DNA of 64,000 nucleotides from an uncultured Thermoleophilia bacterium (GCA_963715985.1 CAVQSP010000011.1:480001-544000); one strand, 5' to 3'. Shown: positions 25,287 through 49,075, counted from the first letter of the stretch. Notes: generated by a model not told the origin, from the sequence alone. Numbers and translations: made by a program.

Positions 25287-26369
25287 TCAGTAGCGCCGGA
25301 CTTCCCGGTACAGCGTGTCGCGCTGCACCGGCGTGCGCCCGGCGGCGCGGATGAGCCGCACCATCTCGGGCACGTCACACTGGTTGCGCACCCCGGCCGC
25401 CGCCACCACGTTCTCCTCGATCATCGTGGAGCCCATGTCGTTGGCGCCGAAGGCGAGCGCGACCTGGCCCATGCGCAGACCCTGCGTGACCCAGGAGGCC
25501 TGGATGCTGGGCACGTTGTCGAGGTAGATGCGGCTCACGGCGAGCATGCGCAGGTAGTCGAAGCCGGTGGCGGAGACGTGGCCGGCCTGCAGCTCCGTGT
25601 TGCCGGCCTGGAAGGTCCACGGGATGAACGCTGTGAACCCGCCCGTCTCGTCCTGCAGATCGCGGATGCGACGCAGGTGCTCGACGCGGTCGGCGAGCGT
25701 GTCGGTCGAGCCGAACATCATCGTGGCCGTGGTCTTCATGCCCAGGCGATGCGCCACGCGCATGACGTCGAGCCACGTGTCGGTGGGGATCTTGTGCGGG
25801 CTGATCTCGAGGCGCACGCGGTCGACGAGCACCTCGGCGCCGCCGCCCGGCAGCGAGTCGAGTCCGGCGGCGCGCAGGCGCGTGAGCGTCTCCTCCACCC
25901 CGATCACGCTCACCTTCGCGATGTGCACGATCTCCGGCGGCGAGAGCGAGTGGATGTGGATCGGGTACTTCGCCTTGATGCCGCTGAAGACGCGCTCGAA
26001 CCAGCCGATGTCGAGGTCCGGGTGCAGACCGCCCTGCATCATGATGGCCGTGCCGCCGAGGGCGAGGGTCTCCTCCACCTTGCGGTGGATCTCCTCCTCG
26101 GCGAGCAGGTAGCCCTCCCCGCTCCCCGGCTTCTTGTAGAAGGCGCAGAAGCGGCAGCCGGAGATGCAGTAGTCGGTGTAGTTGATGTTGCGGTCGACGA
26201 TGAAGGTGACGTCGTCGCCGGGGTGGAGGCGGCGACGGACGGCGTCGGCGCGCGCGCCGACGCCCAGAAGGTCGCCGCCCTCAAGCAACGCGAGCGCCTC
26301 AGCGTCGTCGATGCGGCGCGCGGCGTCGCTCTCCGGGCCGGCCGGACCCGCCGGGGGCCGGCCACTCAC
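25287..26369 (-). CDS. mqnC: cyclic dehypoxanthinyl futalosine synthase
   Basis: DRNINYTDYCISGCRFCAF, LPGGGAEVL, TAFIPWTFQ, FGANDMGSTMIEENVV; GTG 26369 overlaps upstream stop. Confidence 0.92.
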   Translation of the reverse strand: MSGRPPAGPAGPESDAARRIDDAEALALLEGGDLLGVGARADAVRRRLHPGDDVTFIVDRNINYTDYCISGCRFCAFYKKPGSGEGYLLAEEEIHRKVEETLALGGTAIMMQGGLHPDLDIGWFERVFSGIKAKYPIHIHSLSPPEIVHIAKVSVIGVEETLTRLRAAGLDSLPGGGAEVLVDRVRLEISPHKIPTDTWLDVMRVAHRLGMKTTATMMFGSTDTLADRVEHLRRIRDLQDETGGFTAFIPWTFQAGNTELQAGHVSATGFDYLRMLAVSRIYLDNVPSIQASWVTQGLRMGQVALAFGANDMGSTMIEENVVAAAGVRNQCDVPEMVRLIRAAGRTPVQRDTLYREVRRY

Positions 26370-26863
26370 CGCGCGTCTCCTGCGTCCAGACGCCAGACCA
26401 TCTCGATGTAGTCCACGCCGCGACTGCCGGTATCGCGGAACAGAGGGGTGCCGTCGACCACGTCGTCTCCGGGCAGCAGTTCGAACCCGACCGTCTTGTG
26501 GAAGGCGATGGAATCGACGTTCCACGTGCCCACCTCGGCGAACACCTCGGTGCGGCCGCGGGCGCGCGTCATCGCGGCGAAGCGCCGGTACAGCTCGCGC
26601 CCGAGGCCGTGCCCGCGCAGGTCCGGGCGCACGCCCATGTAGTGCACGTATCCGCACGCCGGCCTGCGCTGGGACATGAAGCCCACGAGAAAGGCGATCA
26701 TCTCGCCGCCGTCCTCGACGATCAGACACGTGTCGCCCATGTGCTGGAAGAGCTGCGGACAGACGCCGTGGACCATGTGCGCGTGCGACCACCAGCCCTC
26801 GATGGCGGCGACCACCACCGGCGCGTCCTCCGGCTCGGCGGTGCGCCAGACGACGTCACTCAT
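26366..26863 (-). CDS. GNAT acetyltransferase
   Basis: GYVHYMGVRPDLRGHGLGRELY...NVDSIAFHKTVGF; paralog of adjacent gene. Confidence 0.88.
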   Translation of the reverse strand: MSDVVWRTAEPEDAPVVVAAIEGWWSHAHMVHGVCPQLFQHMGDTCLIVEDGGEMIAFLVGFMSQRRPACGYVHYMGVRPDLRGHGLGRELYRRFAAMTRARGRTEVFAEVGTWNVDSIAFHKTVGFELLPGDDVVDGTPLFRDTGSRGVDYIEMVWRLDAGDAR

Positions 26864-27374
26864 CGCCACTGCCCCCCTCCCCGTCGAGGGCCAGCTCGAA
26901 GTGCACAAGGTAGTCACCATAGGGCCCGGGCTCCCGCGATACCGGGACGCCGTCGACCTGGGCGTCGCCCGGCAGAACGTTGAAGCCGAGGCCTGTGTGA
27001 AAGGCGATCGAGAGAGTGTTGACCGGCGCCGTGACCGCGCGCACCGCCGTGCACCCCTGCGAGCGGGCGCGAGCGCAGAAGCGGCGGTAGAGGTCGCGCC
27101 CGAGCCCGGCCCTGCGCCAGGCCGGGTGCACCCCGCAGAAGTGCACGTAGGCCTCACCGGGGTGGTCGGGACAGGCGAAGCCCACAAGAAACCCGATCAG
27201 CTCGTCCTCGAACTCGGCGACCAGCGAGGTCGAGCGGAAGTGCTCGAAGAACACCCGAGGGAGCATGGCCCTCAGGTCGCGGCCCGCCCACCACTCGACC
27301 ATGACCGCCATGACGCGCTCGTGGTCGGCGGGGATGGGGCGGCGAAACGTGAGTGTGGTGCACGACACAGGCAC
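26856..27374 (-). CDS. GNAT acetyltransferase
   Basis: WWAGRDL...AYVHFCGVHPAWRRAGLGRDLY...NTLSIAFHTGLGF. Confidence 0.88.
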   Translation of the reverse strand: MPVSCTTLTFRRPIPADHERVMAVMVEWWAGRDLRAMLPRVFFEHFRSTSLVAEFEDELIGFLVGFACPDHPGEAYVHFCGVHPAWRRAGLGRDLYRRFCARARSQGCTAVRAVTAPVNTLSIAFHTGLGFNVLPGDAQVDGVPVSREPGPYGDYLVHFELALDGEGGSGDE

Positions 27375-27379
27375 GACTC

Positions 27380-28324
27380 TCAGTCTGACGTCGAGGCTGA
27401 GACTACGGAGTCTGACGGCCTCGAGAAGGTGGCGCCGGTGAGGTCCGGGGCGACGACGAGCTCCCCGGCCGCCACGGCGCGCCGGTAGAACTCCTCGAGC
27501 CCGGCGCGGTACTCAGGAGTGAACTCGAACTTGAGCTTGTCGAAGTAGTCGAGCAGATAGCGCTGGCTGAAGTCGTAGCGCTGCGCCGCGGCGGCGGCCG
27601 TCTCGTGCGGATGCGCGGCGCACTCGTCGCGGGAGGCCAGCAGGGCGGCGCCGACAGCGGCGGCGGCGGCGGGCCGGGCCGCCGTGAACTCGCGGCGCAC
27701 CGCGCAGACCGCGAACACCATGGGCAGTCCGGTGACCGTGTGCCACTCCTCACCGAGGTCGTAGTGGTATGGGTACACCTCGGCGCGCAGCACGTGGAGT
27801 GCCTCGTCGCCGATGAGCAGGAGGCCGTCGAAGTCGGCGAGCACCTCTGCGAGGGAGCCGCGACGGGGCGCGAAGTAGGGGTCCAGTCCCCACTCCCGGC
27901 AGAGGACCTTGAGGAGCGCGATGGAGGTAGCGCTCTTCTCAGTGAGGGCGATGCGCCGCACCTGCGGCAGCGGGACGCGTGTGAACAGCTGGACCGAGTC
28001 CACAGCCCCGAAGGCGCTGATGGAGACGTGAGGAAGAAGCGCCAGCTCACTCGCGTTGCGTGCGAAGGCGATCGAGGACGGGAGGGCGACGTCGATGAGG
28101 CCGTCCACCAGCATCTCGTTGAGCTGCGCCGGATAGCCTTCCACGATGGTCGCAGCCACGCCGCGGCCGGCCAGCTCCGCCGCGAAGTGGTGGTAGAGGG
28201 GGAAGCAGTTGACGAACTCGATGCGCCCGACCCGCACCGGGTTGTCCCCGGCGGCGGGGTGCGGCCGCGGGCCGGCGGCGGCACCGGCCATCGGCGACCC
28301 CTCAGGCGCCGGCGAGGTCGCCAT
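27380..28324 (-). CDS. mqnA: chorismate dehydratase
   Basis: RVGRIEFVNCFPL, GAVDSV, SATSIALL, LLIGDEAL, YDLGEEW...LPMVFAV. Confidence 0.92.
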   Translation of the reverse strand: MATSPAPEGSPMAGAAAGPRPHPAAGDNPVRVGRIEFVNCFPLYHHFAAELAGRGVAATIVEGYPAQLNEMLVDGLIDVALPSSIAFARNASELALLPHVSISAFGAVDSVQLFTRVPLPQVRRIALTEKSATSIALLKVLCREWGLDPYFAPRRGSLAEVLADFDGLLLIGDEALHVLRAEVYPYHYDLGEEWHTVTGLPMVFAVCAVRREFTAARPAAAAAVGAALLASRDECAAHPHETAAAAAQRYDFSQRYLLDYFDKLKFEFTPEYRAGLEEFYRRAVAAGELVVAPDLTGATFSRPSDSVVSASTSD

Positions 28325-29435
28325 CGTACCGGCGCACGACGTTGTAGAGCGTGTCCCGCTCCACGGGGACGCGGCCGGCGGCGCGGATGACGCGGATGAG
28401 CTCAGCTTTGCTGAGCTCCTGGCCCGTGTCGACGCCGGCCGCGTGGCTGATCTTCTCCTCCACCACGGTGCCGTCGAGGTCGTTGACCCCGAAGACCAGC
28501 GAGACCTGGGCCAGCTTGACGCCGACGTTGATCCAGAAGGCCTTGATGTGGCGGAAGTTGTCCAGCACCAGGCGGCCGACGGCGAGCATACGCAGGTCGT
28601 CGAAGCCGGTGGGGCCGGGCAGGTCGTCCAGACCGGTGTTGGCCGGCTGGAACGAAAGCGGGATGAAGGCGTTGAAGCCGCCGGTGTCGTCCTGGAGCTC
28701 GCGCAGACGCACCATGTGATCCGCGAGCTCGTCCGGCCGTTCCACGTGCCCGTAGAGCATGGTGGCGTTGGACTTGAGACCGGCCTCGTGCGCGGCGCGC
28801 ATCACGTCCAGCCACTCCTGCCCGGAGATCTTGCGCTCACAGATGAGGTCGCGCACGCGGCCGCTGAACACCTCGGCGCCGCCGCCCGGCAGCGATCCCA
28901 GCCCGGCCGCTTTGAGCTCGGCCAGCACGTCGGGCACCGGCTTGCCGCTGATCTTCGCGAAGTGGGCGATCTCGCTGGCCGTGAAGGCCTGGATGTGGAC
29001 GTCCGGCGCGAGCTCCCTGAGGGCCCGCATCATGTCCAGGTAGTAGGTGAACGGGAGGTCGGGGTGCTCGCCGCCCACGATGTGGATCTCGCTGATACTG
29101 CCCTCGGCGAGGGTCTCACGCGCCTTGTCGACGACCTCGTCGACCGTGAGCGTGAAGGCGTCGGCGTCGCCCTCGTCGTGGCTGAAGGCGCAGAACAGAC
29201 AGCGGTTGCGGCACACGTTGGTGTGGTTGATGTGGCGGTTGCGGATGAAGAACACGTCGTCGCCCACGGCGCGTGCACGGGCGAAGTCGGCCATCGCGCC
29301 GAGCGCGAGGATGTCGTCGCTCTCCAGCAGGGCGCGCGCCTGGGCGGCGTTCAGCCGCTCGCCCGCCTCGACGGCGCTCCAGACGTCACCGAAGCCGGCG
29401 CGCGCGCTCAGGGACGCGATCTCATAGGGTTCCAC
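28302..29435 (-). CDS. mqnE: aminofutalosine synthase
   Basis: NHTNVCRNRCLFCAF, SNATMLYGHVE, HIKAFW, DLDGTVVEEKISH. Confidence 0.93.
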   Translation of the reverse strand: MEPYEIASLSARAGFGDVWSAVEAGERLNAAQARALLESDDILALGAMADFARARAVGDDVFFIRNRHINHTNVCRNRCLFCAFSHDEGDADAFTLTVDEVVDKARETLAEGSISEIHIVGGEHPDLPFTYYLDMMRALRELAPDVHIQAFTASEIAHFAKISGKPVPDVLAELKAAGLGSLPGGGAEVFSGRVRDLICERKISGQEWLDVMRAAHEAGLKSNATMLYGHVERPDELADHMVRLRELQDDTGGFNAFIPLSFQPANTGLDDLPGPTGFDDLRMLAVGRLVLDNFRHIKAFWINVGVKLAQVSLVFGVNDLDGTVVEEKISHAAGVDTGQELSKAELIRVIRAAGRVPVERDTLYNVVRRYDGDLAGA

Positions 29436-29454: not shown

Positions 29455-30435
29455 TCAGCTGTAGCGGTCCACGACCATGGCGGCGACCTGCTCGAGCAGG
29501 TCGCGCTCCACAGGGCCTGGGCACGCGTTCAGTACTTCACGGGCCTGTTCAATGTACCCCAAAGCAACGGTCCGGGCACGCTGCAAGGCGCTGGTGCGCG
29601 CGACCGCCTCGAGCACTACGGCCACGTCGGCGGCGCCGAGGTCGCGACGCGCCAGCAGCGCGGCCAGTTCGGGGCGCTCCTCCAAGGCGAAGATGAGCGG
29701 CAGCGTCACGGTGCCGTCCCGCACGTCGGTGCCCGGACGCTTGCCGGTGGAGAGCTCGTCGCCGCTGCAGTCGAGGATGTCGTCGAATACCTGGAAGGCC
29801 AGGCCGATGAGGCGGCCGTACTCGGCAAGGGCAGGAGCGTTGTCCGTGGCCCCGCCCAGCAGGGCGCCGAGCCGGCAGGCGGCGGCGAAGAGGTCCGCCG
29901 TCTTGCGCTCGCAGCGGCGCTCGTACTCCAGTACGGTCACCGTGCTGCGGTGGGAGTCGTCGCGCTGCAGCACCTCGCCCTCGGAGAGGCCCACGGCGGC
30001 GGCGCTGAGCGTGTCCACCGCCGCCGCGTCGCCGCTGCCCACGAGCTCCCTGAACGCCCTCGCCAGCAGGAAGTTGCCGGCGGAGACGGCGGTGTCCACA
30101 CCGTAGGCGTACGCGACAGTGGGGCGGCCGCGCCGCAGCTCGGCGCGGTCGAGCACATCGTCGTGTACCAGCGTGGCCATGTGCAGGAGCTCGACGGCGG
30201 TGGCGCCACGCACGACTGGCTCCCCCAGCTTGGCGTCACGCCGCGCGCAGAGCAGAGTGAGCAGCGGCCGCACGCGTTTGCCCCCCGCGGCCAGCGTGGC
30301 CCGGCAGGCCTCGCCGAGCTCGCCGGGCGGATCCGTGGCGACAGCCGAGAGGCGCCCCTCGACCTGGCGCATGCCTCGCGCGTACCGCGCCTTCTGGCGA
30401 GCGGAGGCCCACTCCAGCGCCGGCCCGGTACTCAC
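29455..30435 (-). CDS. polyprenyl diphosphate synthase (catalytic subunit)
   Basis: GGKRVRP, ELLHMATLVHDDVLD...RRG, KTA, FQVFDDILD. Confidence 0.93.
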   Translation of the reverse strand: MSTGPALEWASARQKARYARGMRQVEGRLSAVATDPPGELGEACRATLAAGGKRVRPLLTLLCARRDAKLGEPVVRGATAVELLHMATLVHDDVLDRAELRRGRPTVAYAYGVDTAVSAGNFLLARAFRELVGSGDAAAVDTLSAAAVGLSEGEVLQRDDSHRSTVTVLEYERRCERKTADLFAAACRLGALLGGATDNAPALAEYGRLIGLAFQVFDDILDCSGDELSTGKRPGTDVRDGTVTLPLIFALEERPELAALLARRDLGAADVAVVLEAVARTSALQRARTVALGYIEQAREVLNACPGPVERDLLEQVAAMVVDRYS

Positions 30436-31223
30436 GCCGCACCGCTTCCGGCAGGCCCTCCGGGCACTTCACCGACGTGCAGCGCCACGGCGCCGAACCC
30501 CAGCCGCCGGTAGCGGATGCGCGTCAGGCCTGCTTCACTCATGACGGCCGCCAGCTCGTCAACACGCGGAAACGCCTCGACCGAGGCGGGCAGATACGCG
30601 TAGGCGGACGGGTCTCCGCTCACCACGCGGCCCAGGCGCGGCACCACGCGGCCCATCCACAGATCCTGGAGCGCGCGCTCCGCACCCGGGGGAGCCACGG
30701 TCGACTCCAGACACACCACGCGGCCGCCGGGCCGCGTGACGCGCGCCATCTCGGCGAAGGCGCGGGGGACGTCCGGCACGTTGCGCACGCCCCACCCGAC
30801 GGTGACCGCGGAGAACTCACCGTCGGAGAACGGGAGCGCGAGCACGTCGCCGTGCACGAAGGAGACGCGGGCGCCCGCCCCGGCGTGCCGCGGTGCAGCG
30901 GCCTTGCGACGCGCCACCTCGAGCATGGCCTCCGTGAAGTCGAGGCCGACCACGGTGGCGCGCGGCCACAGCTCCGCAAGCTCCAGGGTGAGGTCGCCGG
31001 TGCCGCAGCAGGCGTCAAGGGCCCGACCCCCATCGCCCACGAGTGCCTCCAGGCCGGCGAGGCGGCGCCAGCCGCCGTCCATGCCCAGCGTCATCAGCCG
31101 GTTCATGAGGTCGTAGCGTGCGGCGATGCCCGCGAACATCGCGGAGATGCGTCCCGGCTCGCGATCGACGGGCAGCGACCGCCCGCCGCCGGGCGGGCCG
31201 GCGTGGGCGCCAGAGGTGATCAG
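30432..31223 (-). CDS. menG: demethylmenaquinone methyltransferase (UbiE/MenG); start uncertain
   Basis: MFAGIAARYDLMNRLMTLG, LDACCGTGD, GVRNV, AYAYLPASV. Confidence 0.92.
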   Translation of the reverse strand: MITSGAHAGPPGGGRSLPVDREPGRISAMFAGIAARYDLMNRLMTLGMDGGWRRLAGLEALVGDGGRALDACCGTGDLTLELAELWPRATVVGLDFTEAMLEVARRKAAAPRHAGAGARVSFVHGDVLALPFSDGEFSAVTVGWGVRNVPDVPRAFAEMARVTRPGGRVVCLESTVAPPGAERALQDLWMGRVVPRLGRVVSGDPSAYAYLPASVEAFPRVDELAAVMSEAGLTRIRYRRLGFGAVALHVGEVPGGPAGSGAA

Positions 31224-31836
31224 CCCCGGCCCCCGTCCCACGGCGGGAAGAGCGTCTGCTCGAAGCCCAGAGACGTGAGCACCTTGCCCACCACGTGGTC
31301 CACGGCATCCTGGAGGGTCTGCGGGCGCGAGTAGAAGCCGGGCATGGCCGGCAGCACCACGGCGCCCGCCTCGGCGAGCTCGAGGAGACGCCGCAGGTGG
31401 ATCTGCGTGAGCGGCGTCTCCCGGGGGACGACCACCAGCGGGCGCCGCTCCTTGAGCGCCACGTCGGCGGCGCGATGGATGAGCGTGCGCGTCGTCCCCA
31501 GGGCGATGTGCGCCACGGTGGCGACCGAGCAGGGACACACGACGACGGCGTCGGGAGAGCTGCTGCCACTCGACGCCGGCGCCGCGAGGTCGTCCGGCGC
31601 GTACACCCGCGCCTGCGCGCCCGCGCGCTCGAGGAACGCCGCGATGACGCCGTCCCGACCGTCTGCCTCCAGCTCCAGCTCGTGCTGGAGCACGAGCACG
31701 CCGTTGTCGGAGACGCACAGCTGCAGGCTGCAGCCGGCGGCGGCCAGCGCCTGAGCGAGCCGAAGGCATAGGGGGCGCCGCTGGCGCCGCTCACCCCCAG
31801 GAAGACGCTAGAGGGAGGTGTCGAGGTAATGGGCAG
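31220..31836 (-). CDS. ubiX: flavin prenyltransferase UbiX/MqnM (indel near 31765; start uncertain)
   Basis: VFLGVSGASGAPYA in one frame, then APASSGS, PCS, RAADVALKERR, PRETP, PGFY. Confidence 0.9.
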
Positions 31837-31845: not shown

Positions 31846-33069
31846 TCACTGCGACAGTGGGGCCGGGTTGATGACGTCGCCGGTCACATGGCACTGGCCA
31901 CCATAGCACCCGTGCGGCCCGGTGCCGCCGTTGCCGTGGCACTTCATGCACACGCTGCCGCTGTTGTACACGTGGTTCGGGTGGTCGTTGATGAAGGCGC
32001 TGCCGTGCGGGAGCTCCACGCCGTGGCAGTTCACGCAGAACGAGCTGCTGTGGCACTTGGTGCACGTGCTCGGCGACGACAAAGCCGTGCTCGGGTGCGT
32101 GGAGAGCCAGCCGGACGGATGCGGCATCTGCAGGCCGTGGCAGCTGATACAGGCGTTCTTGCCGTGGCACTTCACGCAGACCCTGGGGTCCTTCTCGCCG
32201 ACCGTGCTGTGGCGGCTCACCCAGTCGCTCGGGTGCGGTATCTGGACGCCGTGGCAGTCGATGCAGAACCTGGGGTCCTTCTTGAGGTGGCACGACACGC
32301 AGATGCCCTTGCCGCGGTCGTTGACGATGGGGCCGTGCTGCTTGAGCCAGCCCGCCGGATGCGGCATGTCGAGGCCGTGGTGGCACTCGGCGCAGATGAC
32401 CTGGCCACGGTGGCACCCGGCGCACTCTTCCGGGGTCACGCGACCTTCGATGGGTACGTTGATCTCCTCCGGAGGCGCCCCGCCCACGTGGCAGACGCTG
32501 CAGTCGTCCGGCAGCCGCACGCCGTCGTGGCAGCGCGCGCAGATGGGCATCTTGTTCTGCGACACGCGCGCCGCCTGGATCTGCGTGCCTGGGTGGCTGA
32601 TGTTGGCGTGGCAGGTGACGCACTGGTACCCGGCCTCACGCAGCCCGGTGTGGTTGACGCGGATGTTGTTGAAGACCTGGTCCCGCTCGAGCTGCGACTT
32701 GGGATGGCACTGCACGCAGTTGTTGGTGCCCACCATGGTGGTGAGGGGGCGCTCGTACGTGTTGGACACGTAAAGGATGAGGTTGGTGACGCCCTGCAGG
32801 TTGCGGATGAGGTAGTTGAAGACGCCCGGCTTGGTGTGGCACTTCTGGCAGCCCACGCCGGCGCGGTAGTGCGCCGACTGCTTGTACGTCTCGACCTCAG
32901 GCTTGATCAGATGGCAGGTCTCGCACGTGGAGACGTTGTTCAGGGCGGAGAAGCCCACGATCGCGACGACGAGGACCGCGCCGAGGGCGAGAAGGACGCC
33001 GACCAGCCAGGGCCTCGGCACTCTGCCCTCGAGCAGGATCCGGCTCTTGGGGATGCGGTCCCTGAACAT
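31846..33069 (-). CDS. membrane-anchored NapC/NrfH-like multiheme cytochrome c (15 CxxCH + CX4CH)
   Basis: N-terminal TM, CETCH...SAH...CQKCH NapC-type head, repeated HPxxWxxxH-CxxCH-CxxCH modules. Confidence 0.9.
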   Translation of the reverse strand: MFRDRIPKSRILLEGRVPRPWLVGVLLALGAVLVVAIVGFSALNNVSTCETCHLIKPEVETYKQSAHYRAGVGCQKCHTKPGVFNYLIRNLQGVTNLILYVSNTYERPLTTMVGTNNCVQCHPKSQLERDQVFNNIRVNHTGLREAGYQCVTCHANISHPGTQIQAARVSQNKMPICARCHDGVRLPDDCSVCHVGGAPPEEINVPIEGRVTPEECAGCHRGQVICAECHHGLDMPHPAGWLKQHGPIVNDRGKGICVSCHLKKDPRFCIDCHGVQIPHPSDWVSRHSTVGEKDPRVCVKCHGKNACISCHGLQMPHPSGWLSTHPSTALSSPSTCTKCHSSSFCVNCHGVELPHGSAFINDHPNHVYNSGSVCMKCHGNGGTGPHGCYGGQCHVTGDVINPAPLSQ

Positions 33070-33072: not shown

Positions 33073-34114
33073 TCAGCCGCTCCCCGGGACGATGGTCTTG
33101 GTGGGCGTCGGACGCGGCGCCGGTGTGTACTGGATGCCCTTGAAGAGGCTGTGAGCGCGCGGGTCGCCGGACGCGTGCTGCTCGTGACACGCCTGGCAGT
33201 TGTCCAGCACGTGGCAGTTGAAGCAGGTCGGAGCGCCCGCCTCGGCCACGGAGGCCGGGTGCTTGGCGACGAACGTCGTCCGGGTGCGGCATCTGCACCT
33301 GGTGGCAGGTCTTGCAGTACTTCTTGACGTCGTGGCACTGGGCGCACGAGTCGCGACCCTTGACCTCGGCGGTCTTGCCGTGCGCGTAGAGCCAGGCGTC
33401 GTTGTGGGGCATCTCGATGCCGCTGTGGCACTTGCTGCAGGCATCCTTCTTGATGTGGCAGGCGCTGCAGGTGGAGAGCACGCCGATGGCGCCGTGTCGC
33501 GTGCCCCAGTCGGGCTCGCTGTGCGATACAGGCTTGGCGCCGTACCCACGCTCGGCGTGGCAGAGGTCGCAACGTGACGTGGCCACCGTACCGTCCGGGG
33601 CCGTGTACTGGTTGTTGTGGCAGATGAGGCACTGCTCCATGACCGGGTACGTGCGCGAACCCTCGGGCACGGCGTCACCGTGGGCGGTGGTGGAGTGGCA
33701 GCGCTGGCAGAGGAAGCCGGCCTCGATGAGGTGCTCGTGGTTGACGCGAATGCCGCCTGCGCTGATGGTCTTGAACAGCGTGTCGTTGGTGTGGCAGCGC
33801 CGGCACGACTGGTTGAGCACATAGCCGAGGATAGGCTCCTCGTAGTCGCCCGTGATCTGCGCCAGAGGCTGCTGAAGTGCCTCGAGCTTGGAGGTGAGGA
33901 AGAACAGCGGCCCCGGCTTGGTGTGGCACTGCTCGCAGTTCACGTCGCCGTGCGCGGACTTGTCCCATTCTGTCACGTAGGGCACATGGCTCTTGCACGA
34001 GGAGCAGAAGCGGGCCGTGGAGGTGGCGGCCAGCATGACGCCGATGACCACCACCAGGACGGTGAGGCCGATGGCCCCGATCGTGAGGCCGCGGACGGTG
34101 AGCCGGAACTTCAC
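33073..34114 (-). CDS. membrane-anchored NapC/NrfH-like multiheme cytochrome c (11 CxxCH + CSSCK); indel near 33280
   Basis: TM, FCSSCKSH...WDKSAH..VNCEQCH; C-terminal CFNCH and CQACH lie in ORF 33073..33822. Confidence 0.88.
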
Positions 34115-41152: not shown

Positions 41153-42093
41153 AGAGTCACCCCGCTCTGCTCGTGGCAGGCGTCACACATGCCCTGCGGG
41201 TGGCACACGAGACAGGCACTGGGGCCCTGCTTGGCGATGGCGCCGTGCGTCTGCAGCCAGGTGGCGGGGTGGTTCACGGAGTGGCACTGGGCGCAGTAGG
41301 CCTTGTCGTGACAGGCCTCGCAGCTGGTGGGGTCGGCGGTGGCATCGGGGCCGTGCGTGTAGCGCCAGCGGCCCGAGAAGTGGGTAGCCGGCGGGAACCC
41401 GTGGCACTTGTCGCAGAACGACTTCCTGTCGTGGTGGCAGCGCAGGCAGTCCGCCTCATTGAGCAGCGCCTTCTTGCCGTGGTCCTCCATGAAGTCCGGC
41501 GCGTGCTGCGAAGGCGGAGGCGCCACGTGGCAGAAGTCGCAGCGATCGGGGGCACCCTGCTCGTTGTGACACATGGCGCAGGTGACCATGCTGACGCCCT
41601 CGGGCTGGCCCGCCCTCTTGTGCGAGACGGTGGTGTGACAGTCGGAGCAGTTGAGGCCACGCAGCTTGAGGTGCTCGGCGTGGTTCATGCGCACGCCGTT
41701 GCTCTCGTTGGGGATCTCGGCGAGCGGATGGCACTTGAGGCAGTTGGCGTTGCTGGGCAGGTGCCCCTTGTCCGACGTCCCGGTCATGCCGAGGTAGTCG
41801 GCCCACACGTTCCTCGCCTCGTTGTAGCGCCAGCGCGACGCCGCCACGACTCCCGGCGGGATGTGGCACTGCGTGCAGCTGACGTCCTTGTGCGCGCCCT
41901 GGGCCCAGGTCTTCTCGGCCGGCTTCATGGCCTTGCAGGAGGTGCAGTAGTCGACGGAGTCCCGGGCGGCCACGGGGAGCACGAGGATGGCCACGACGGC
42001 GACGGCGACGACGAGCACCACGACCCAGGTGAACCACGTGCGGCGATACCAGGCACGCGGTGTCGGCCGGTGGCGATGACCGCTTTCAGTCAA
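41149..42093 (-). CDS. membrane-anchored NapC/NrfH-like multiheme cytochrome c (11 CxxCH + CTSCK)
   Basis: TM, YCTSCKAM...WAQGAHKDVSCTQCH; colinear paralog of 37028..37990. Confidence 0.9.
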   Translation of the reverse strand: MTESGHRHRPTPRAWYRRTWFTWVVVLVVAVAVVAILVLPVAARDSVDYCTSCKAMKPAEKTWAQGAHKDVSCTQCHIPPGVVAASRWRYNEARNVWADYLGMTGTSDKGHLPSNANCLKCHPLAEIPNESNGVRMNHAEHLKLRGLNCSDCHTTVSHKRAGQPEGVSMVTCAMCHNEQGAPDRCDFCHVAPPPSQHAPDFMEDHGKKALLNEADCLRCHHDRKSFCDKCHGFPPATHFSGRWRYTHGPDATADPTSCEACHDKAYCAQCHSVNHPATWLQTHGAIAKQGPSACLVCHPQGMCDACHEQSGVTL

Positions 42094-42174: not shown

Positions 42175-42183
42175 ATTGTACCA
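42175..42183 (-). promoter_or_regulatory. extended -10 promoter of cytochrome module 1
   Basis: TGGTACAAT about 80 nt upstream of 42093. Confidence 0.6.
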
Positions 42184-42239
42184 TCCTGCCAAATGAGCTG
42201 CCACACGCGCGAAACCCGGCGCCGCGCGTCGCGCCACGC

Positions 42240-43676
42240 TCAGGAGAAGGGCAGGCCGAGCTCGCGCCAGCGCTCGTCCACGCGCCTGACGACCGAGGGG
42301 TCCATGGCCAGCTCCTCGGGCCACTCGCGCGCGTGGCCCTCGTCGGGCCACGTCTTGGTGGCGTCGATGCCCATCTTGGCGCCGTAGCGCGCGAAGGGGC
42401 TCGAGTGGTCGAGCACGTCGAGCGGCCCGGAGACGATCACCGTGTCGCGGGCCGGGTCGACGTTGTTGAACACCCGCCACGTGACCTCGCTGTAGTCGTG
42501 CACGTCGACGTGCTCGTCGACCACGACGACGAACTTGGTGAACATCATCTGCCCCATGCCCCACACGGCGTTCATGATCTTGCGCGCGTGGCCCGGGTAC
42601 TCCTTGCGGATGCTGATGATGGCGCAGTCGTGGAAGACGCCCTCGATGGGCAGGTCCATGTCGACGATCTCCGGCTGCACGAGCTGCAGCAGCGGCAGGA
42701 AGAGGCGCTCCGTGGCCTTGCCGAGATACGCGTCCTCCATCGGCGGCTTGCCGACGATGGTGGCAGGGTAGATGGGGTCGCGGCGGTGGCTCATGGCCGT
42801 GAGGTGGAACACCGGGTACTGATCGGCCAGCGAGTAGTAGCCGGTGTGGTCGCCGAAGGGCCCCTCGAGCCGCGTCTCGCCCTTCTCGACGTAGCCCTCG
42901 AGGACGATCTCGGCGTCGGCCGGCACGGAGAGGTCGACGGTCGCGCACGACGCCATCTCGACCGGCTCGCCGCGCAGGAACCCGGCGAACATGAACTCGC
43001 TGATGCCCGGCGGGAGCGGCGCGGTGGCTGCGTACGTGACCGCCGGGTCGGTGCCGAGGGCGACCGCCACCTCCATGCGATCGCCCGCCTCGCGGAAGTT
43101 GGCGGCGCCGTCGTGGTGGATGTGGATGTGCATGCCGGTCGTCCGCCGGTCGAAGACCTGCAGGCGATACATGCCCGCGTTCTGGCGGCCCTGCCGGTCC
43201 TTGGTCACGACGATCGGCAGGGTGATGAAGGGTCCGCCGTCGCCGGGCCACGTGGTGAGCACCGGCAGGCGGGAGAGATCGGGCGGGTCGACGACCACCT
43301 CGCGGAAGAGAGGCTTCTTGCCGTACTTGGGGCCGTAGGAGGCGAGCTCCTTGAGCTGGCCGAGCGCCTTGACCTTGCCGATGAGGCCGCTCGGCACCTG
43401 CAGCTCGAGCAGGCCGCCGATGCGCTTGGCGATGTCGTCGAGCGGCGCCCCGAGCGCCAGCTCCAGGCGCCGGTACGAGCCCAGCTGGTTCATCAGGACC
43501 GGCACGGCGGGCTGCCCTGCCGGTCGCTTCGGCTGCTCGAACAGGACCGCCGGCCCGTGCGCCTTGCTGGCGCGGTCGGCGATCTCCGCCATCTCCAGAT
43601 AGGGGTCGACCTCGGGGCGTACGCGCGCCAGCTCGCCCTCGCGCTCCAACAAGCTGATGAAGGCGCGCAGGTCCAC
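42240..43676 (-). CDS. mqnL: UbiD-family menaquinone biosynthesis decarboxylase (MqnL)
   Basis: DLRAFISLLEREGEL, WPGDGGPFIT, EGPFGDHTGYY, GKPPMED, KMGIDAT. Confidence 0.9.
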   Translation of the reverse strand: MDLRAFISLLEREGELARVRPEVDPYLEMAEIADRASKAHGPAVLFEQPKRPAGQPAVPVLMNQLGSYRRLELALGAPLDDIAKRIGGLLELQVPSGLIGKVKALGQLKELASYGPKYGKKPLFREVVVDPPDLSRLPVLTTWPGDGGPFITLPIVVTKDRQGRQNAGMYRLQVFDRRTTGMHIHIHHDGAANFREAGDRMEVAVALGTDPAVTYAATAPLPPGISEFMFAGFLRGEPVEMASCATVDLSVPADAEIVLEGYVEKGETRLEGPFGDHTGYYSLADQYPVFHLTAMSHRRDPIYPATIVGKPPMEDAYLGKATERLFLPLLQLVQPEIVDMDLPIEGVFHDCAIISIRKEYPGHARKIMNAVWGMGQMMFTKFVVVVDEHVDVHDYSEVTWRVFNNVDPARDTVIVSGPLDVLDHSSPFARYGAKMGIDATKTWPDEGHAREWPEELAMDPSVVRRVDERWRELGLPFS

Positions 43677-43678
43677 GA

Positions 43679-44272
43679 TCAGCTCACCGCCCCCGTCGGC
43701 ACCGCCGCCAGCGCCCGCTCCAGCGGGGCCGCGTCGCGCAGGCCGAGCCCGGCCGCCTCCCGGCGCGCGAGCGCCGGCACGTCTGCGCCGGCGCCGCCGA
43801 ACAGCGCCGCGTCGAGGCGCTCGAAGAGGCCCTCCGCGCCCGCGGCGCCGCCGCGGCGCAGGGCGGCCAGACCCGCGACCGTGTAGGCCCACAGGGCGTC
43901 GTCGGCGGCGAACGGAGCCTGCACGCTGCGCAGGTACGAGCAGGCGGCCATGAGCCGGGTCAGCAGGCCGACGGCGGCGACGTCGCCGCGCGCGGCGACC
44001 AGGCGCAGGCCGCGCGCGTACAGGAAGTCGCCGGCGAGCAGCGCGTTCTCGCGGCCGGCGGCGGCTTCGGCCGCACACACGCGGCTCTCGCGGTAGTGGA
44101 ACAGGTAGCCCTCGTAGATGAGCTCGATGGCGGTGACGTACCCGGTGTCGTCGTCGCCGTCGAGCTCGTCGAAGAGCGCGCCCCAGCACAGCGCGGGCGG
44201 GGACGCGGCCGGGGGGCCGAAGGCGGCCCCGGCCTCACCGAGCCCGCTCGCGACGGCCGCGGCGTCGACCAC
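43679..44272 (-). CDS. hypothetical protein, degenerate isoprenyl synthase fold (HepS-like)
   Basis: AIELIYEGYLFHY and LLAGDFLYARGL segments; no DDxxD. Confidence 0.6.
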   Translation of the reverse strand: MVDAAAVASGLGEAGAAFGPPAASPPALCWGALFDELDGDDDTGYVTAIELIYEGYLFHYRESRVCAAEAAAGRENALLAGDFLYARGLRLVAARGDVAAVGLLTRLMAACSYLRSVQAPFAADDALWAYTVAGLAALRRGGAAGAEGLFERLDAALFGGAGADVPALARREAAGLGLRDAAPLERALAAVPTGAVS

Positions 44273-44273
44273 C

Positions 44274-44915
44274 TCAGGCCCGCTCGTGGTCCAGGTAGAA
44301 GGTGAGCGACATGAGCTCGCTGGAGAGGTCCACCTGGCGCACGAGCACGCCGTCCTGACCCTGCACCTTGACGGGCGCGAAGTTCAGCACGGCCTTGACG
44401 CCCGCCGCGCTCAGACGGTCCACGGTGGCCTGCGCCTCGCTCGCCGGCACCGTGACGAGGGCGATGTCCACCTGCTCGCTGCCGCAGAAGTCCTCCAGGT
44501 CGGAGATGCTGCGCACGCGCCCGGTGCCGTAGCTCGCGCCGATCACCGTGGCCGAGCTGTCGAACATGCCGACGAGGCGGAAGCCCTGTTCCGAGAAGCC
44601 CCGGTAGCGGGCGAGGGCGGTGCCCAGAAGACCTGCACCCACGATGACCACGTTCCACTGGTGATCGAGGCCGAGGCAATGGGAGATCTCGTCGATGAGC
44701 CTCACGACTTCATAGCCCACGCCCCGCGTGCCGAACTCGCCGAAGTACGAGAAGTCCTTGCGGATCTGGGCGGCGTTCAGGCCGATGCTCTCGGCGAGGT
44801 CCTTGCTGGACACCCTCTCCACGCCGCGGGCCCGCAGCTCGCGGAGCTTGCGGAGGTACACCGCCAGCCGCGGCACTGTGACGGCCGGGACGTCGTTCTT
44901 GTCTACGTTGCGCAC
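44274..44915 (-). CDS. rex: redox-sensing transcriptional repressor Rex
   Basis: RLAVYLR, QIRKDFSYFGEFGTRGVGY, VGAGLLGTAL, LNFAP. Confidence 0.97.
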   Translation of the reverse strand: MRNVDKNDVPAVTVPRLAVYLRKLRELRARGVERVSSKDLAESIGLNAAQIRKDFSYFGEFGTRGVGYEVVRLIDEISHCLGLDHQWNVVIVGAGLLGTALARYRGFSEQGFRLVGMFDSSATVIGASYGTGRVRSISDLEDFCGSEQVDIALVTVPASEAQATVDRLSAAGVKAVLNFAPVKVQGQDGVLVRQVDLSSELMSLTFYLDHERA

Positions 44916-44929: not shown

Positions 44930-46213
44930 TCAGGCTGCGAAGAAGCTGGCGGCCGCCTCGGCGGCCCTGGCGATGTCGTCCTCGCTCAGCGCCAGCGAGA
45001 TCATGGCGGCTTCGAACTGCGACGGTGCCAGGTAGACGCCGCGGTCGAGCATGTGCCGCCAGTAGGCGGCGTACAGGTCGGTGTCGGCGTGCCTGGCCGC
45101 CGCGAAGCTGTTCACCGGACCGTCACAGAAGAACAGCGTCATCATCGGTCCGACACGGTTGAGCGTGTAGGGCCGGTCGCCGGCGGAGGCGGCGATGACG
45201 AGGCCCTCCGCCGCTTGGGCGGCCAGCGCCTCGAGGCGCTCGTACACGCCGGGCTCGCCGAGCACGTGGAGCGTGGCGGCGCCGGCCGCCATGGCGAGGG
45301 GATTGCCCGAGAGCGTGCCGGCCTGGTACGTGGACCCGAGCGGCGCCACGGTCTCCATGATGTCGCGGCGTCCGCCGAAGGCGCCCACGGGGAGGCCGCC
45401 GCCGATGATCTTGCCCAGCGTGGTGAGGTCGGGCAGCACCCCGAAGCGGGCCTGCGCCCCTCCCCACGCCACGCGGAAGCCGGTGATGACCTCGTCGAAG
45501 ATGAGCACGGCGCCGAAGCGGCTGCAGAGGTCACGGCAGGCCTGCAGGAACCCGGGGTCAGGCGGCACGACGCCCATGTTGCCGGCCACGGGCTCGACGA
45601 TGAGCGCGGCGATCTCCTCCCCGCGCGCCTCGAAGAGCGCGGTGAGCGCCGCCACGTCGTTGTACTCCACGAGCAGCGTATCGGCCGTGGTGCCCTTGGT
45701 GACGCCGGGGCTGTCGGGCAGAGCCAGCGTGAGCACCCCGCTGCCGGCGGCGGCCAGAAAGGCGTCCGAGTGGCCGTGGTAGCACCCGATGAACTTCACG
45801 ATCTTCTCCCGACCCGTGAAGCCGCGGGCGACCCGCACGGCACTCATCGTCGCCTCGGTGCCGGAGTTGACCATGCGCACCATCTCGACCGACGGCACGG
45901 CCTCGCAGATGACGCGCGCCAGTTCGACCTCGAGCTCCGTGGGAGCACCGTAGCTGGTGCCGCGGTCCACCTGCACGTGGAGGCTGCCGAGCACGTCCGG
46001 GTGGCCCCATCCGAGGATCATCGGGCCCCACGACGAGACGAAGTCAATGAACTCGTTGCCGTCCACGTCCCAGATGTGCGCGCCTGAGGCGTGGTCGACG
46101 AACAGCGGATACGGCATGCCCACGCCCTTCATGGCGCGGACAGGCGAGTTCACGCCGCCCGGGATGTACTGTCGCGCCTCCTGGAACAGCCGCGCAGAGG
46201 TCTCCGTCTTCAC
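44930..46213 (-). CDS. hemL: glutamate-1-semialdehyde 2,1-aminomutase
   Basis: IPGGVNSPVRA, NSGTEATMSA, FDEVITGFR, LGKIIGGGLPVG, YQAGTLSGNP. Confidence 0.97.
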   Translation of the reverse strand: MKTETSARLFQEARQYIPGGVNSPVRAMKGVGMPYPLFVDHASGAHIWDVDGNEFIDFVSSWGPMILGWGHPDVLGSLHVQVDRGTSYGAPTELEVELARVICEAVPSVEMVRMVNSGTEATMSAVRVARGFTGREKIVKFIGCYHGHSDAFLAAAGSGVLTLALPDSPGVTKGTTADTLLVEYNDVAALTALFEARGEEIAALIVEPVAGNMGVVPPDPGFLQACRDLCSRFGAVLIFDEVITGFRVAWGGAQARFGVLPDLTTLGKIIGGGLPVGAFGGRRDIMETVAPLGSTYQAGTLSGNPLAMAAGAATLHVLGEPGVYERLEALAAQAAEGLVIAASAGDRPYTLNRVGPMMTLFFCDGPVNSFAAARHADTDLYAAYWRHMLDRGVYLAPSQFEAAMISLALSEDDIARAAEAAASFFAA

Positions 46214-46293
46214 CCAGTCCTCCCCACAAGAAGTGCGGCCACGTCCCCGCGTGGTCCGGAAAGACAGAAATGATACTACGCAGAGCGTCACGC

Positions 46294-46311
46294 ATGTGCT
46301 TTTGCGCACGA
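46294..46311 (-). promoter_or_regulatory. probable Rex operator upstream of hemL-rex
   Basis: ATGTGC-TTTTGC-GCACGA (GTGC-N6-GCAC, Rex spacing) upstream of a TATCAT -10 at 46270-46275. Confidence 0.55.
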
Positions 46312-46853: not shown

Positions 46854-46879
46854 CGCGAGGGAGGGCGCGCCGGGAGGCG

Positions 46880-48014
46880 TCAGCCGACGCCCGGCGCGCA
46901 CCAGCCCTTGGGCACGTACGCGCAGTACGGCTCCTCGGCCATGTAGTCGCCGGTCGCCTCGTACGCTCGCGCGCGGCAGCCGCCGCAGACCTTCTTGAAC
47001 TCGCACACGCCGCACTTGCCTTTGAGCCCGTCGAAGTCCCGCAGCTCGTTGAAGAGCGGCGAGTCGCGCCACACCTCGGGGAAGGTCTGCTCGCGCACGT
47101 TGCCGGCGACCTTGTCGAAGTAGCCGCAGCCCTGCACGTCGCCGATGTGACTGATGAAACAGAAGCCGATGCCGGCCAGGCAGCCACGGCTGAGCGTGTT
47201 CATGCCGCCGTGGCTGTGCGGGTGCACCTCGAGCTTGCGGCCCTGCTCCTTGGCGCGCTGGCGCATGACGCGCCAGTAGTGCGGCACGTCGGTGGGCTTC
47301 ATGAACAGGTCCGACTCCTGCTGGGCGTCGTACATCCACTCCAGGGCGCGCTCGTACTCCTCCGGCGGCAGCTCCTGCGCCTCCAGCTCCTTGCCGCGAC
47401 CCGTGGGCACCAGCATGAACGGGTGGAACGAGACGGCGCCGAGGTCGGTGGCCAGCTTGAGCAAGGCGGGCAGCTCGTGGGCGTTGAGCTTGGTGATGGT
47501 GCTGTTGATCTGCACCTCCACGCCGGCGTCGAGGCAGTTGCGGATGCCCCGCACGGCGCCGTCGAACGCGCCGGGCACGCCGCGGAACTCGTCGTGCTCC
47601 GCGGCGGTCGGGGAAGTCGATGGAGATGCTCACGCGGGCGATGCCCACCTCGTGCATGCGCCTCGCGACCTCGGGCGTGACCAGCGTGCCGTTGGGCGAC
47701 ATGACCGTGCGCAGGCCGGTGGCGATGGCGTGCTCGGCGATGTCGAAGATGTCGGCGCGCATGAGCGGGTCGCCGCCGGTGAGGATGAGGATGGGGTTGG
47801 CGAACGAGGCGATCTGGTCGACGAGGGTGAAGCACTCCTCGGTGCTCAGCTCGCCCTCGTAGGGGCCGTGGACGGCCGAGGCGCGGCAGTGCACGCAGGC
47901 CAGGTTGCAGCTGCGCGTGACCTCCCAGGCCACCACGCGCGGCGGGGCGACGCCGCCGGCGTCGCCGAGCCGCGCGTCCGTACCGTGAGGGTTTTGTGTG
48001 CCTGGATGGTGCAA
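46880..48014 (-). CDS. ahbD: radical SAM/SPASM heme b synthase of the siroheme-dependent pathway (indel near 47610)
   Basis: AWEVTRSCNLACVHCRASA, ILTGGDPL, LVPTGRG, RGCLAG, KCGVCEFKKVCGGCRARAY; next to hemB. Confidence 0.75.
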
Positions 48015-48097
48015 ACCTGTCCTAGTCTGCCAGACGGGGCGGGGCGGCGCAACGCGGCAGTGCCGCGCCGCCCCTCACGTCGATCTGCCCGGGCCGC

Positions 48098-49075
48098 TCA
48101 GCCCTGCTGCAGCCAGCGGGCGATGTCCTTGGCGTGGTACGTGATGATGAGGTCGGCGCCGGCGCGCTTGATCCCGGTGATGGCCTCCATCACGGCGCGC
48201 TCCTCGTCGAGCCAGCCGTTGGCCGCCGCCGCCTTGATCATCGCGTACTCGCCGCTGACGTTGTACGCGGCCAGCGGGTACTTGGTCTCCTGCTTGACGG
48301 CGTGGATGACGTCCAGGAACGGGATGGCCGGCTTGACCATGATGATGTCCGCGCCCTCCTCGATGTCCAGCAGCGACTCGCGCACAGCCTCCTCGAGGTT
48401 GGCCGGGTCCATCTGGTACGTCTTGCGGTCGCCGAAGGCGGGGGCCGACTCGGCCGCCTCGCGGAACGGCCCGTAGAACGCCGAGGCGAACTTGCTCGAG
48501 TACGCCATGATGATGGTGTCGGGAAGACCTTCGTCGTCGAGCGCGTTGCGGATGGCGGCCACGCGCCCGTCCATCATGTCGCTCGGGGCCACGATGTCGG
48601 CGCCACTGTCGGCGTGCGTGACGGCCATCTTGGCGAGCAGCTCCAGGGTGACGTCGTTGAGGATCTCGCCGTCCTGGGTGACGCCGCAGTGCCCGTGGTC
48701 CATGTACTCACAGAGGCACACGTCGGTGATGACCACCAGGTCGGGGAACTCGTCCTTGATGGCCCTCACGGCCATCTGCACCACGCCCTCGGGGTCGTAG
48801 GCGCCCGTGGCGGCGGAGTCCTTGTGCGAGGGGATCCCGAACAGCAGGATGGCGGGGATGCCCAGGTCGACGGCCTCGCGGACCTCGCCGATCAGGTTGC
48901 CGATGGAGAGCTGGAAGCAGCCCGGCATGGAGCTGATGGGGTTCTTGACGTTCTCGCCGGCGATGACGAAGTACGGGTAGATGAGGTCGTCGATCTTGAG
49001 CGTCGTCTCGCGCAGCATGTTGCGGATGGCCGGCGTGCGGCGCAGGCGGCGCATGCGGTAGCTGGGGTAGTACAT
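48098..49075 (-). CDS. hemB: porphobilinogen synthase
   Basis: [49 protein letters not shown]. Confidence 0.97.

Follow-up and report, generated by a model that had tools for sequence, protein, structure and literature searches.

A multiheme cytochrome cassette among the heme and menaquinone genes of an uncultured Thermoleophilia bacterium: a candidate electron conduit in a monoderm actinobacterium

The cytochrome cassette

The window analysed here is a 64,000-nucleotide stretch of DNA from an uncultured Thermoleophilia bacterium (GCA_963715985.1, CAVQSP010000011.1:480001-544000). Between positions 25287 and 49075, counted from its first nucleotide, multiheme cytochrome genes sit inside a futalosine-menaquinone operon, behind hemB, ahbD, hemL and rex. 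A preliminary description of this region had proposed a Rex-gated conduit leading electrons from menaquinol to the cell surface. The six-frame count gave 73 CxxCH motifs, on the minus strand only and confined to seven genes, against a genome background of about 0.6 lone CxxCH per 24 kb. From left to right, these genes (hereafter referred to, with the cytochrome b gene among them, as the cassette) contain 15 motifs (31846-33069, N15), 9+2 in two frames (33073-34114, N11b), 10 (34118-35143, S10), 7 (36276-37031, C2), 12 (37028-37990, N12), 7 (39365-41152, CB1) and 11 (41149-42093, N11a). Six atypical sites, which we judged real, bring the total to 79 heme-c sites: CxxCK as the first site of N11a and N11b, CxxxxCH in N15, and CxCH, CxxxCH and CxxxxCH in S10, where the Cys and His are invariant in 20 of 20 aligned sequences. 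The locus also encodes two cytochrome b domains, in CB1 and B2. These counts, and the interleaving of heme and menaquinone genes with multiheme genes, agree with the preliminary description, as judged from the six-frame count and family searches.

The same description had noted the lack of a catalytic molybdo-, hydrogenase- or NrfA-type subunit, a porin or a cytochrome maturation gene, and none was found among the 66 open reading frames (ORFs) of the window that were scanned; the Ccm genes lie elsewhere in the genome. Of 36 genus relatives, 25 carry an intact bc gene and one more retains a remnant; 18 of the 25 intact loci were examined for gene order. No catalytic partner subunit was present in any of the 18.

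Four genes are frameshifted in the assembly: N11b (33274), B2 (36106), C2 (36291-36301) and ahbD (one base, 47610). Near-identical DNA was present in 24 sequencing runs, all labelled wetland metagenome and possibly from a single campaign; no RNA run was listed among them. Contigs lacked the extra bases in two of the four runs examined for 33274, 36106 and 47610, and in three of the four for 36291-36301. Relatives carry unbroken versions of these genes, ahbD being a single ORF in most and N11b an intact 11-site ORF in all 18 genus loci (12 sites in one). The frameshifts are therefore most likely long-read assembly errors, and the possibility that these genes are pseudogenes was ruled out on the same two grounds.

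CbcL-type bc cytochromes

CB1 (39365..41152, minus strand) is a fused bc cytochrome with a signal peptide, seven c-hemes and six predicted membrane helices (residues 271-304, 331-355, 372-403, 446-470, 482-512 and 562-594; model mean predicted local distance difference test score, pLDDT, 65.5). His294, His337, His379, His491 and His507, one in each of helices 1-3 and two in helix 5, are invariant in 45 of 45 aligned proteins. A pattern of five His in six helices has been given for CbcL (10.1101/2021.04.15.440034), and the helix spacing resembles that of GSU0274 (supplement of PMC6295460). The b domain matches FdnI both by sequence (1kqf_C, E 6e-5) and by fold (1kqg_C, Z 13.0, root-mean-square deviation, rmsd, 3.2, 204 aligned residues); the structure search barely probed the c domain. 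By its c domain, six helices, His pattern and FdnI/HydC-type b fold, CB1 is assigned to the CbcL/MtrH/MtoC family, the N-terminal c-type domains of which are described as containing 3-23 CxxCH (PMC6295460); CB1 and C2 each have seven.

The second bc module is a naturally split pair, encoded by separate genes in relatives too. C2 (36166..37031, minus strand; indels at 36291-36301) is the c partner, a heptaheme protein whose single C-terminal membrane helix carries a His, and its c domain gave a weak match (E 2e-8) to PDB 28PB, which we take to be CbcA, listed in a review as '2BPB'. B2 (35249..36173, minus strand; frameshift near 36106) is a paralog of the b domain of CB1 that has diverged to 45% identity, with five predicted helices and four His. 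It carries Gly at the family-conserved Glu494, a Glu present in 130 of 153 family rows. The B2 clade was distinct, with 99% support in the Shimodaira-Hasegawa-like approximate likelihood ratio test (SH-aLRT), in a quickly built b-domain tree used solely for the grouping of the two paralogs. A role for the b domains as parts of a formate dehydrogenase or hydrogenase was ruled out, as no such subunit was present in the 18 loci and the genome yielded no group 1 small subunit.

The search for homologs of CB1 yielded 79 loci spread over many phyla. In Betaproteobacteria, among them Ramlibacter lithotrophicus and a Paucibacter metagenome-assembled genome (MAG), homologs adjoin MtrC/MtrA-type genes. 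In several other phyla (8 loci), a 19-heme CbcL-family gene also has a divergent paralog of 11-16 hemes beside it; CbcL paralogs arranged in pairs may be a common design.

NrfH-fold cytochromes

Four proteins, N11a (41149..42093), N12 (37028..37990), N11b (33073..34114, frameshift 33274) and N15 (31846..33069), all encoded on the minus strand, each have one N-terminal helix, predicted to anchor them in the membrane, and a PF03264 match above the cut-off. Each is extended by repeats of the form H-x-W-x3-H..CxxCH..CxxCH, three such diheme repeats being present in N11a. The assignment of the cassette to CbcL-type and NapC/NrfH-type families in the preliminary description is thus borne out by the His and helix pattern, the FdnI fold and PF03264. 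Scores for TIGR03153 (NrfH, cut-off 134 bits) were 45-56 bits for three of these proteins, and N11b gave no match. N12 matched 2j7a_C (NrfH) by sequence (E 9e-8), and residues 23-166 of its model matched the same structure by fold (Z 8.3, rmsd 4.3, 133 aligned residues; next row Z 3.8); no Foldseek match to the model was obtained at E≤0.001. The diheme-repeat part of N12 (pLDDT 53-72) was barely probed by the structure searches.

The four proteins differ at heme 1. The motif is CxxCH-x-M in N12 (12 CxxCH, this being the first), CxxCK-x-M in N11a (11 CxxCH in addition) and CxxCK-x-M/T in most N11a-type proteins, and CxxCK-x-H in N11b (11 CxxCH in addition); N15 (15 CxxCH and CxxxxCH) lacks both the heme-1 Met and an equivalent of the NrfH residue Lys82. 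The Met is present in 10 of 10 N12 homologs, 12 of 19 N11a-type proteins, 1 of 18 N11b and 0 of 15 N15 sequences. In NrfH, heme 1 is reported to be ligated by Met rather than by the His of the motif (10.1101/2022.01.10.475773), which would explain why Lys is tolerated in the motif.

Two further multiheme proteins are encoded outside the cassette (coordinates elsewhere in the genome are given as contig:position): a fifth NrfH-type protein with 9 CxxCH (C10:207515-208522) and a 12-heme protein adjoining a pyridine nucleotide oxidoreductase and a ferredoxin (C21:47969-49036).

S10 and surface-type cytochromes

S10 (34118..35143, minus strand) contains 13 sites (10 CxxCH and 3 atypical) and a cleavable-looking signal peptide; no catalytic domain was recognised in it. 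Its N-terminal half is acidic (net charge -11) and its C-terminal half basic (+21). The family comprises 54 representatives at E≤1e-30. Among 20 members inspected, several have a basic C-terminal beta-type domain and one has an LPXTG-like sortase-type tail. The ESM Atlas returned for S10 generic multiheme clusters only, with scores ≤0.90. A secreted paralog with about 36 sites in tandem 6-heme repeats, followed by a C-terminal beta-type domain, is encoded elsewhere (C14:30400-33019, frameshifted near its start) and recurs in 7 of 36 genus relatives.

The genome also encodes a nonaheme protein (C11:79645-81738; 7+2 sites), the best and only PDB match of which was the distant 6I5B (E 9e-9), the structure of OcwA from Thermincola potens (PMC7911101). 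This OcwA-like gene has an in-frame TAG near its middle in this assembly and a Rex-like box upstream. It is whole in most relatives, several of them with a basic C-terminal domain, and it was detected in 30 of 36 genus relatives, including all 25 with an intact bc gene. An HAO-family octaheme-like protein followed by a PKD domain (C9:591-2252) occurs in 9 of the 36 relatives. No hexaheme CwcA-type ORF was seen in the six-frame list of multiheme proteins of the genome.

Conservation and distribution

The preliminary description had proposed a comparison of synteny among related genomes. In all 18 genus loci the cassette lies between ubiD/ubiA and ubiX, with 55-75 CxxCH. Gene order was that of the window in 11 loci; the second module is deleted in one, both modules are reordered in two and a single module is present in four. 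The cassette is missing or decayed in five near-complete relatives (designated G002, G004, G007, G010 and G031). In the last four, ubiA adjoins ubiX, and ahbD and hemL are also absent from the locus. In G002 the flanks are kept, with ubiA and ubiX both intact, and only about 0.7 kb is left between them of a cassette of several kilobases (L074:9700-10640): joined fragments of N11a, the b gene, S10 and N15, together with a promoter word that is damaged.

Within the class, two families yielded the b domain, one in 25 of 46 genomes and the other in 14 of 44, and it was detected in none of 160 genomes of ten other families; in a sample of the phylum it occurred in 12 of 400. In one genome, G044, ten cytochrome genes are inserted between ahbD and hemL. 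In other classes, 4 of 11 loci (four genomes) combine hemB-ahbD-hemL, a bc pair, two decahemes, a 12-heme gene and rex. The hemB-hemL-ubiD backbone occurs without cytochromes in G037, G038 and G041, representing three other families; the heme/menaquinone/rex supercluster is thus an ancestral neighbourhood in Thermoleophilia that hosts the cassette at varying places. The supercluster of the preliminary description is therefore present, but its heme, menaquinone and rex setting is not special. In Streptomyces, rex is co-transcribed with heme genes (PMC5355995). Horizontal acquisition of the locus as an island was ruled out, given its guanine and cytosine (GC) content (0.67-0.69, versus 0.70 for the window) and its conservation across two families and another class.

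Rex-type boxes and promoters

A single match to the Rex consensus was found in the window, against 0.04 expected. This candidate operator (35231..35248; 2 mismatches to TTGTGAA-N4-TTCACAA) precedes S10-N11b-N15 and overlaps a predicted promoter with a -10-like word at 35218-35226. Its arms are conserved and its spacer variable in 11 of the 18 genus loci, and it is degenerate in one; in the relative G013 the box survives despite the loss of the upstream genes. Of the four loci from other classes, three show a box ahead of the 12-heme gene and rex. Genome-wide, 34 Rex-type sites were counted at ≤3 mismatches, 22 of them intergenic, against a mean of 7.5 and a maximum of 17 for 20 permuted palindromes. 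Such words precede hydrogenase, Hdr, alanine dehydrogenase-like and rex genes, and two further rex paralogs (C20:278281 and C22:39858) each have a Rex-like box upstream.

A degenerate palindrome, GTG-N8-CAC (46294..46311, minus strand), is a Rex- or Crp-type operator candidate for hemL-rex-hyp-ubiD, with six mismatches to the Rex consensus. It lies just upstream of a conserved -10 word (46272-46281) and is present in 17 of 18 aligned upstream regions, including that of G002, which lacks the cassette. Crp-family sites resemble Rex sites, and Crp-family proteins are present in the genome; the palindrome could be a Crp-type site. The bc modules have promoter words of their own: an extended -10-like word before N11a (42175..42186, minus strand), conserved in 22 of 23 aligned upstream regions and altered in the relative with the decayed cassette, and a conserved -10-like word before N12 (38077-38087). 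They might conceivably also be transcribed by read-through from the hemL promoter.

Host genome and respiratory background

The assembly comprises 4.35 Mb and is 88.8% complete and 7.3% contaminated. Proteins about 70% identical to CB1 carry the name Thermoleophilia, and no outer-membrane marker (neither Omp85/BamA, PF01103, nor the MtrB porin, PF11854) was matched in this 89% complete genome, in keeping with the monoderm actinobacterium of the preliminary description. Without Omp85 or MtrB, the exported cytochromes would face the wall. System I maturation genes (ccmE, F, A, B and C), which are unusual for Actinomycetota, adjoin hemA and hemC on another contig (C13:371000-379000), with an extra PF01578 protein. 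Searches for the CcsA/CcmC Trp motif and the Rieske motif returned nothing and were too strict, since the family search did detect the Ccm genes.

The respiratory inventory was based on 154 of 294 ORFs from 20 genome regions, scanned against Pfam. It comprised complex I, Qcr-type cytochrome b/c, aa3 and bd oxidases, Mvh/Hdr and other cytoplasmic-type hydrogenases, many pyrogallol-transhydroxylase-like molybdenum enzymes and two NrfD-anchored molybdenum complexes. Neither a group 1 hydrogenase small subunit nor a canonical NrfA was found in the genome (89% complete), and the sole molybdenum enzyme with a twin-arginine translocation (Tat) signal among 12 checked has its own NrfD anchor.

Comparison with known systems

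The bc cytochromes resemble CbcL (GSU0274) of Geobacter sulfurreducens, which has nine c-hemes rather than the seven found here, so that CB1 is not CbcL in the strict sense (PMC6295460; 10.1101/2021.04.15.440034; 10.1101/2022.08.31.506072). The cassette differs further in having two paralogs, one of them split and lacking the Glu, in the co-transcribed NrfH-fold genes and in a host without an outer membrane or porin. C2 resembles CbcBA of G. sulfurreducens in its heptaheme domain, its C-terminal helix with a His and its adjoining b gene; unlike the CbcBA b subunit (four helices, three His), B2 agrees with CbcL in its five helices and four His, and the locus has no sigma-54 regulator. The four N proteins share with NrfH, NapC and CymA the N-terminal helix and tetraheme NrfH fold and, in N12, CxxCH-x-M at heme 1. 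They depart from these proteins in their 8-12 extra hemes in diheme repeats, the lack of an nrfA, napA or torA partner, a CxxCK heme 1 in two of the four and scores far below the NrfH cut-off. Unlike Mtr/Mto porin-cytochrome conduits, the genome (89% complete) yielded no MtrB/PioB porin or outer-membrane marker.

Among monoderms, Carboxydocella thermautotrophica likewise has two clusters of a b-type gene with a membrane-anchored multiheme c gene, together with a NapC-related ImcH homolog and secreted multihemes (PMC6085454). It is a Firmicute, compared here by description; its account describes neither embedding among menaquinone genes nor Rex, and one of its two strains does not reduce Fe(III) (PMC6085454). 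The ImdcA-PdcA-CwcA-OcwA system of Thermincola also combines a membrane-anchored multiheme, a secreted multiheme and a surface nonaheme in a monoderm (PMC7911101); here, by contrast, there are two bc cytochromes and four anchored proteins, and the similarity to OcwA is distant. Within the Actinomycetota, Parvivirga hydrogeniphila (Coriobacteriia, Anaerosomatales) has a Gram-positive wall and a cluster of multihemes, cytochrome c biogenesis genes and Rex (PMC9686372). It is an obligate Fe(III) reducer and its cluster holds a quinol-oxidising candidate; the paper names no CbcL and reports that no quinones were detected, and the clusters are likened by description only (PMC9686372).

A 2018 survey lists no CbcL homolog in Actinobacteria (PMC6295460), and Olmsted and colleagues report that 8 of 19 Thermoleophilia MAGs encode CbcL homologs and surface multihemes (10.1101/2022.03.26.485925). 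The view in the preliminary description that this lineage has no characterised equivalent was consequently too strong, given these MAGs and the Parvivirga cluster. We found no description of this particular cassette in the literature; the supplement of 10.1101/2022.03.26.485925 may name these proteins.

Proposed electron transfer and alternatives

On balance, although with little more than even confidence, we read the cassette as a candidate system for the outward transfer of electrons from menaquinol to the cell surface and an extracellular acceptor. This reading best fits the lack of a catalytic partner, the surplus of hemes, the exported and surface-type members, the Rex-type control and the occurrence of the OcwA-like gene in every cassette-bearing relative. 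Complex I and other dehydrogenases would reduce menaquinone, and the CbcL-type bc cytochromes would oxidise menaquinol, with electrons crossing the membrane via two b hemes into a 7-heme outer domain. Menaquinol may alternatively be oxidised at an NrfH-type heme 1, a site that is most intact in N12 and N11b. The four NrfH-fold proteins would act as membrane-anchored posts, whose added diheme repeats would conduct electrons outward over 12-16 hemes. From there S10, secreted and with 13 hemes, would relay them through the wall to the OcwA-like nonaheme and, in some genomes, to the S10 paralog with about 36 hemes. The final acceptors would be extracellular, for example Fe(III) or humic quinones. 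Rex would de-repress S10-N11b-N15 as NADH builds up, since repression at a Rex-type box is expected to be lifted by an excess of NADH (PMC5355995).

Several observations weigh against outward transfer in this form. The Rex gating of the preliminary description is only partly upheld, by the operator candidate before S10-N11b-N15; that box is absent in 6 of the 18 loci, in which S10 directly follows the b gene, and no conserved Rex-type box precedes the bc-module promoters (N11a and N12). Not all residues of the NrfH quinol site are retained: the position of Lys82 holds Lys in N11b, Arg in N11a and N12 and Asn in N15, and the equivalent of Asp89 is Asn or Gln in nearly all. With the Lys kept only in N11b, some of the four N proteins may be wires rather than quinol oxidases. 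The giant S10 paralog is present in only 7 of the 25 cassette-bearing relatives. Six genomes without the cassette and the OcwA-like gene also lack a heme-copper oxidase, so that the co-loss of cassette and OcwA-like gene is unspecific and may reflect the loss of respiration as a whole; four of the five near-complete cassette-less genomes also lack CcmF, and these kin are not independent. Multiheme content does not always go with iron reduction: Carboxydocella strain 041 is reported to have CbcL- and ImcH-like genes and to reduce no Fe(III) (PMC6085454), and Anaerosoma tenue, with its 18 multihemes, does not reduce Fe(III) either (PMC9686372). Nor does the CbcL family fix the direction of flow, since it includes MtoC of Fe(II) oxidisers (PMC6295460).

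The preliminary description had itself named a soluble-acceptor reductase encoded elsewhere as the case that would count against a surface conduit. The locus holds no catalytic partner, but the case is kept alive by the OcwA-like and HAO-like genes. The cassette would then be a quinol-oxidising hub feeding these proteins, much as NrfH feeds NrfA, with nitrite, hydroxylamine or other oxyanions as substrates. The NrfH fold of four cassette proteins, the presence of the OcwA-like gene in 25 of 25 cassette-bearing relatives and of an HAO-family protein in the genome, and the reduction of oxyanions and soluble shuttles by OcwA (PMC7911101) are all consistent with such a hub. The absence of a canonical NrfA and the restriction of the HAO-like gene to 6 of the 25 relatives argue against it, as do G044 and G059, which have bc cytochromes yet gave no OcwA-like match with this query. 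Four hemes should moreover suffice for a soluble acceptor, rather than 55-79, and the repeats and S10 would be left without a role. We therefore consider a hub of this kind rather unlikely.

Inward flow is improbable. Surface Fe(II) or reduced humics would be oxidised, the FdnI-type b domains would reduce menaquinone and a bcc-aa3 or bd oxidase would pass the electrons to O2. The b domain does have the fold of FdnI, and menaquinone reduction would proceed as in FdnI and as proposed for MtoC, a member of the family (PMC6295460). The Qcr-type cytochrome b/c and the aa3 and bd oxidases of the genome, the heme-copper oxidase in 21 of the 25 cassette-bearing relatives and the altered conserved Glu site of B2 would also suit this direction. 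Electron flow from Fe(II) to menaquinone is, however, uphill. The Rex-type box, released under NADH excess (PMC5355995), fits a sink for electrons, and among cultured actinobacteria the nearest one to carry a cluster of this kind reduces Fe(III) (PMC9686372).

There is only a slight chance that the hemes serve mainly as a capacitor, charged from menaquinol in short anoxic spells and later discharged to O2 with little transfer outside: the very high heme count, facultative respiratory set, wetland occurrence and Rex-type control would suit it, but the secreted S10, the surface-type C-terminal domains of S10 and OcwA-like relatives and the LPXTG-like member point to a location beyond the membrane, and constant gene order and heme numbers over the 18 loci suggest specific contacts.

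Detailed knowledge of extracellular electron transfer comes largely from Gram-negative bacteria and a small number of Firmicutes. If the cassette conducts electrons outward as proposed, these uncultured wetland bacteria would use iron or humic matter for respiration, and methanogens could face them as competitors for electrons. The principle has precedent; the advance would lie in a defined architecture among monoderm multiheme electron-transfer systems. The conserved b domain can serve as a marker gene and the Rex-type box as a switch open to testing; the heme-1 variants with CxxCK and the CbcL paralog without the Glu are clean targets for biochemistry. A bolder and doubtful extension is that the two uncultured Thermoleophilia families are widespread, overlooked electroactive bacteria of wetlands and sediments, with a porin-free conduit of their own design, NrfH domains made into anchored wire posts by diheme repeats and a repeat-expandable S10 family (13 to about 36 hemes) spanning the wall; two CbcL paralogs with different quinone sites would make this a two-way geobattery, dumping electrons on humics or iron under anoxia and drawing them back with O2.

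Neighbouring genes and minor observations

The genes around the cassette all lie on the minus strand. Upstream are hemB (porphobilinogen synthase, 48098..49075; PF00490, E 6e-152), the heme b synthase gene ahbD (radical S-adenosylmethionine (SAM)/SPASM; 46880..47990, 5' end approximate; TIGR04545, 157+338 bits over two pieces) and a class III aminotransferase gene (44930..46216; PF00202), presumably hemL (glutamate-1-semialdehyde aminomutase) from its neighbourhood and sequence features. They are followed by rex (44274..44915), encoding an NADH/NAD+-sensing repressor (NCBIfam Rex models above cut-off) and one of three paralogs in the genome, a conserved hypothetical gene (43679..44272) with no family match that is retained in syntenic cytochrome-less relatives, and the menaquinone biosynthesis decarboxylase gene mqnL/ubiD (42240..43685; TIGR03701, 606 bits, cut-off 496). 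Between the two bc modules lie the prenyltransferase gene mqnP/ubiA (38127..39005; PF01040 and TIGR01475 above cut-off, MqnP models below) and a gene for a small membrane protein of no known family (39023..39361). The latter tracks ubiD/ubiA rather than the cytochromes and was rejected as a cassette subunit, since it persists where the cassette decays.

Downstream are genes for the flavin prenyltransferase ubiX (31220..31830, 5' end approximate; TIGR00421 above cut-off), the methyltransferase menG/ubiE (30432..31200, 5' end approximate; TIGR01934 above cut-off), a polyprenyl diphosphate synthase (29455..30435; PF00348), the aminofutalosine synthase mqnE (28302..29435; TIGR03700 above cut-off) and an MqnA/MqnD-family menaquinone protein (27380..28284; PF02621), assigned as mqnA by position. 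Two GNAT acetyltransferase genes (26366..27374; PF00583), variably present among relatives, separate these from mqnC (cyclic dehypoxanthinyl futalosine synthase, 25287..26369; TIGR03699 above cut-off).

Beyond hemB, a gene for a DUF4388 protein with a C-terminal GTPase-like part (49205-50473) is fixed upstream of hemB genus-wide, even where cytochromes are lacking. Further along the window (53602-57270), very GC-rich, Arg-rich minus-strand ORFs with no Pfam match adjoin a phosphotransferase gene and a B12 radical SAM gene. Elsewhere in the genome, at least seven pyrogallol-transhydroxylase-like molybdoenzymes are accompanied by IclR regulators (C14:525000-539000, C13:467000-486000 and C11:59500-62000), which may point to the degradation of phenolic compounds without oxygen, plausible as a source of electrons in peat. 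A formate dehydrogenase-like molybdenum enzyme fused to a flavin domain (C10:180663-184493) has an in-frame TGA, probably encoding selenocysteine, and trimethylamine (MTTB) and dimethylamine methyltransferase family genes lie near molybdenum enzymes (loci L040 and L041).

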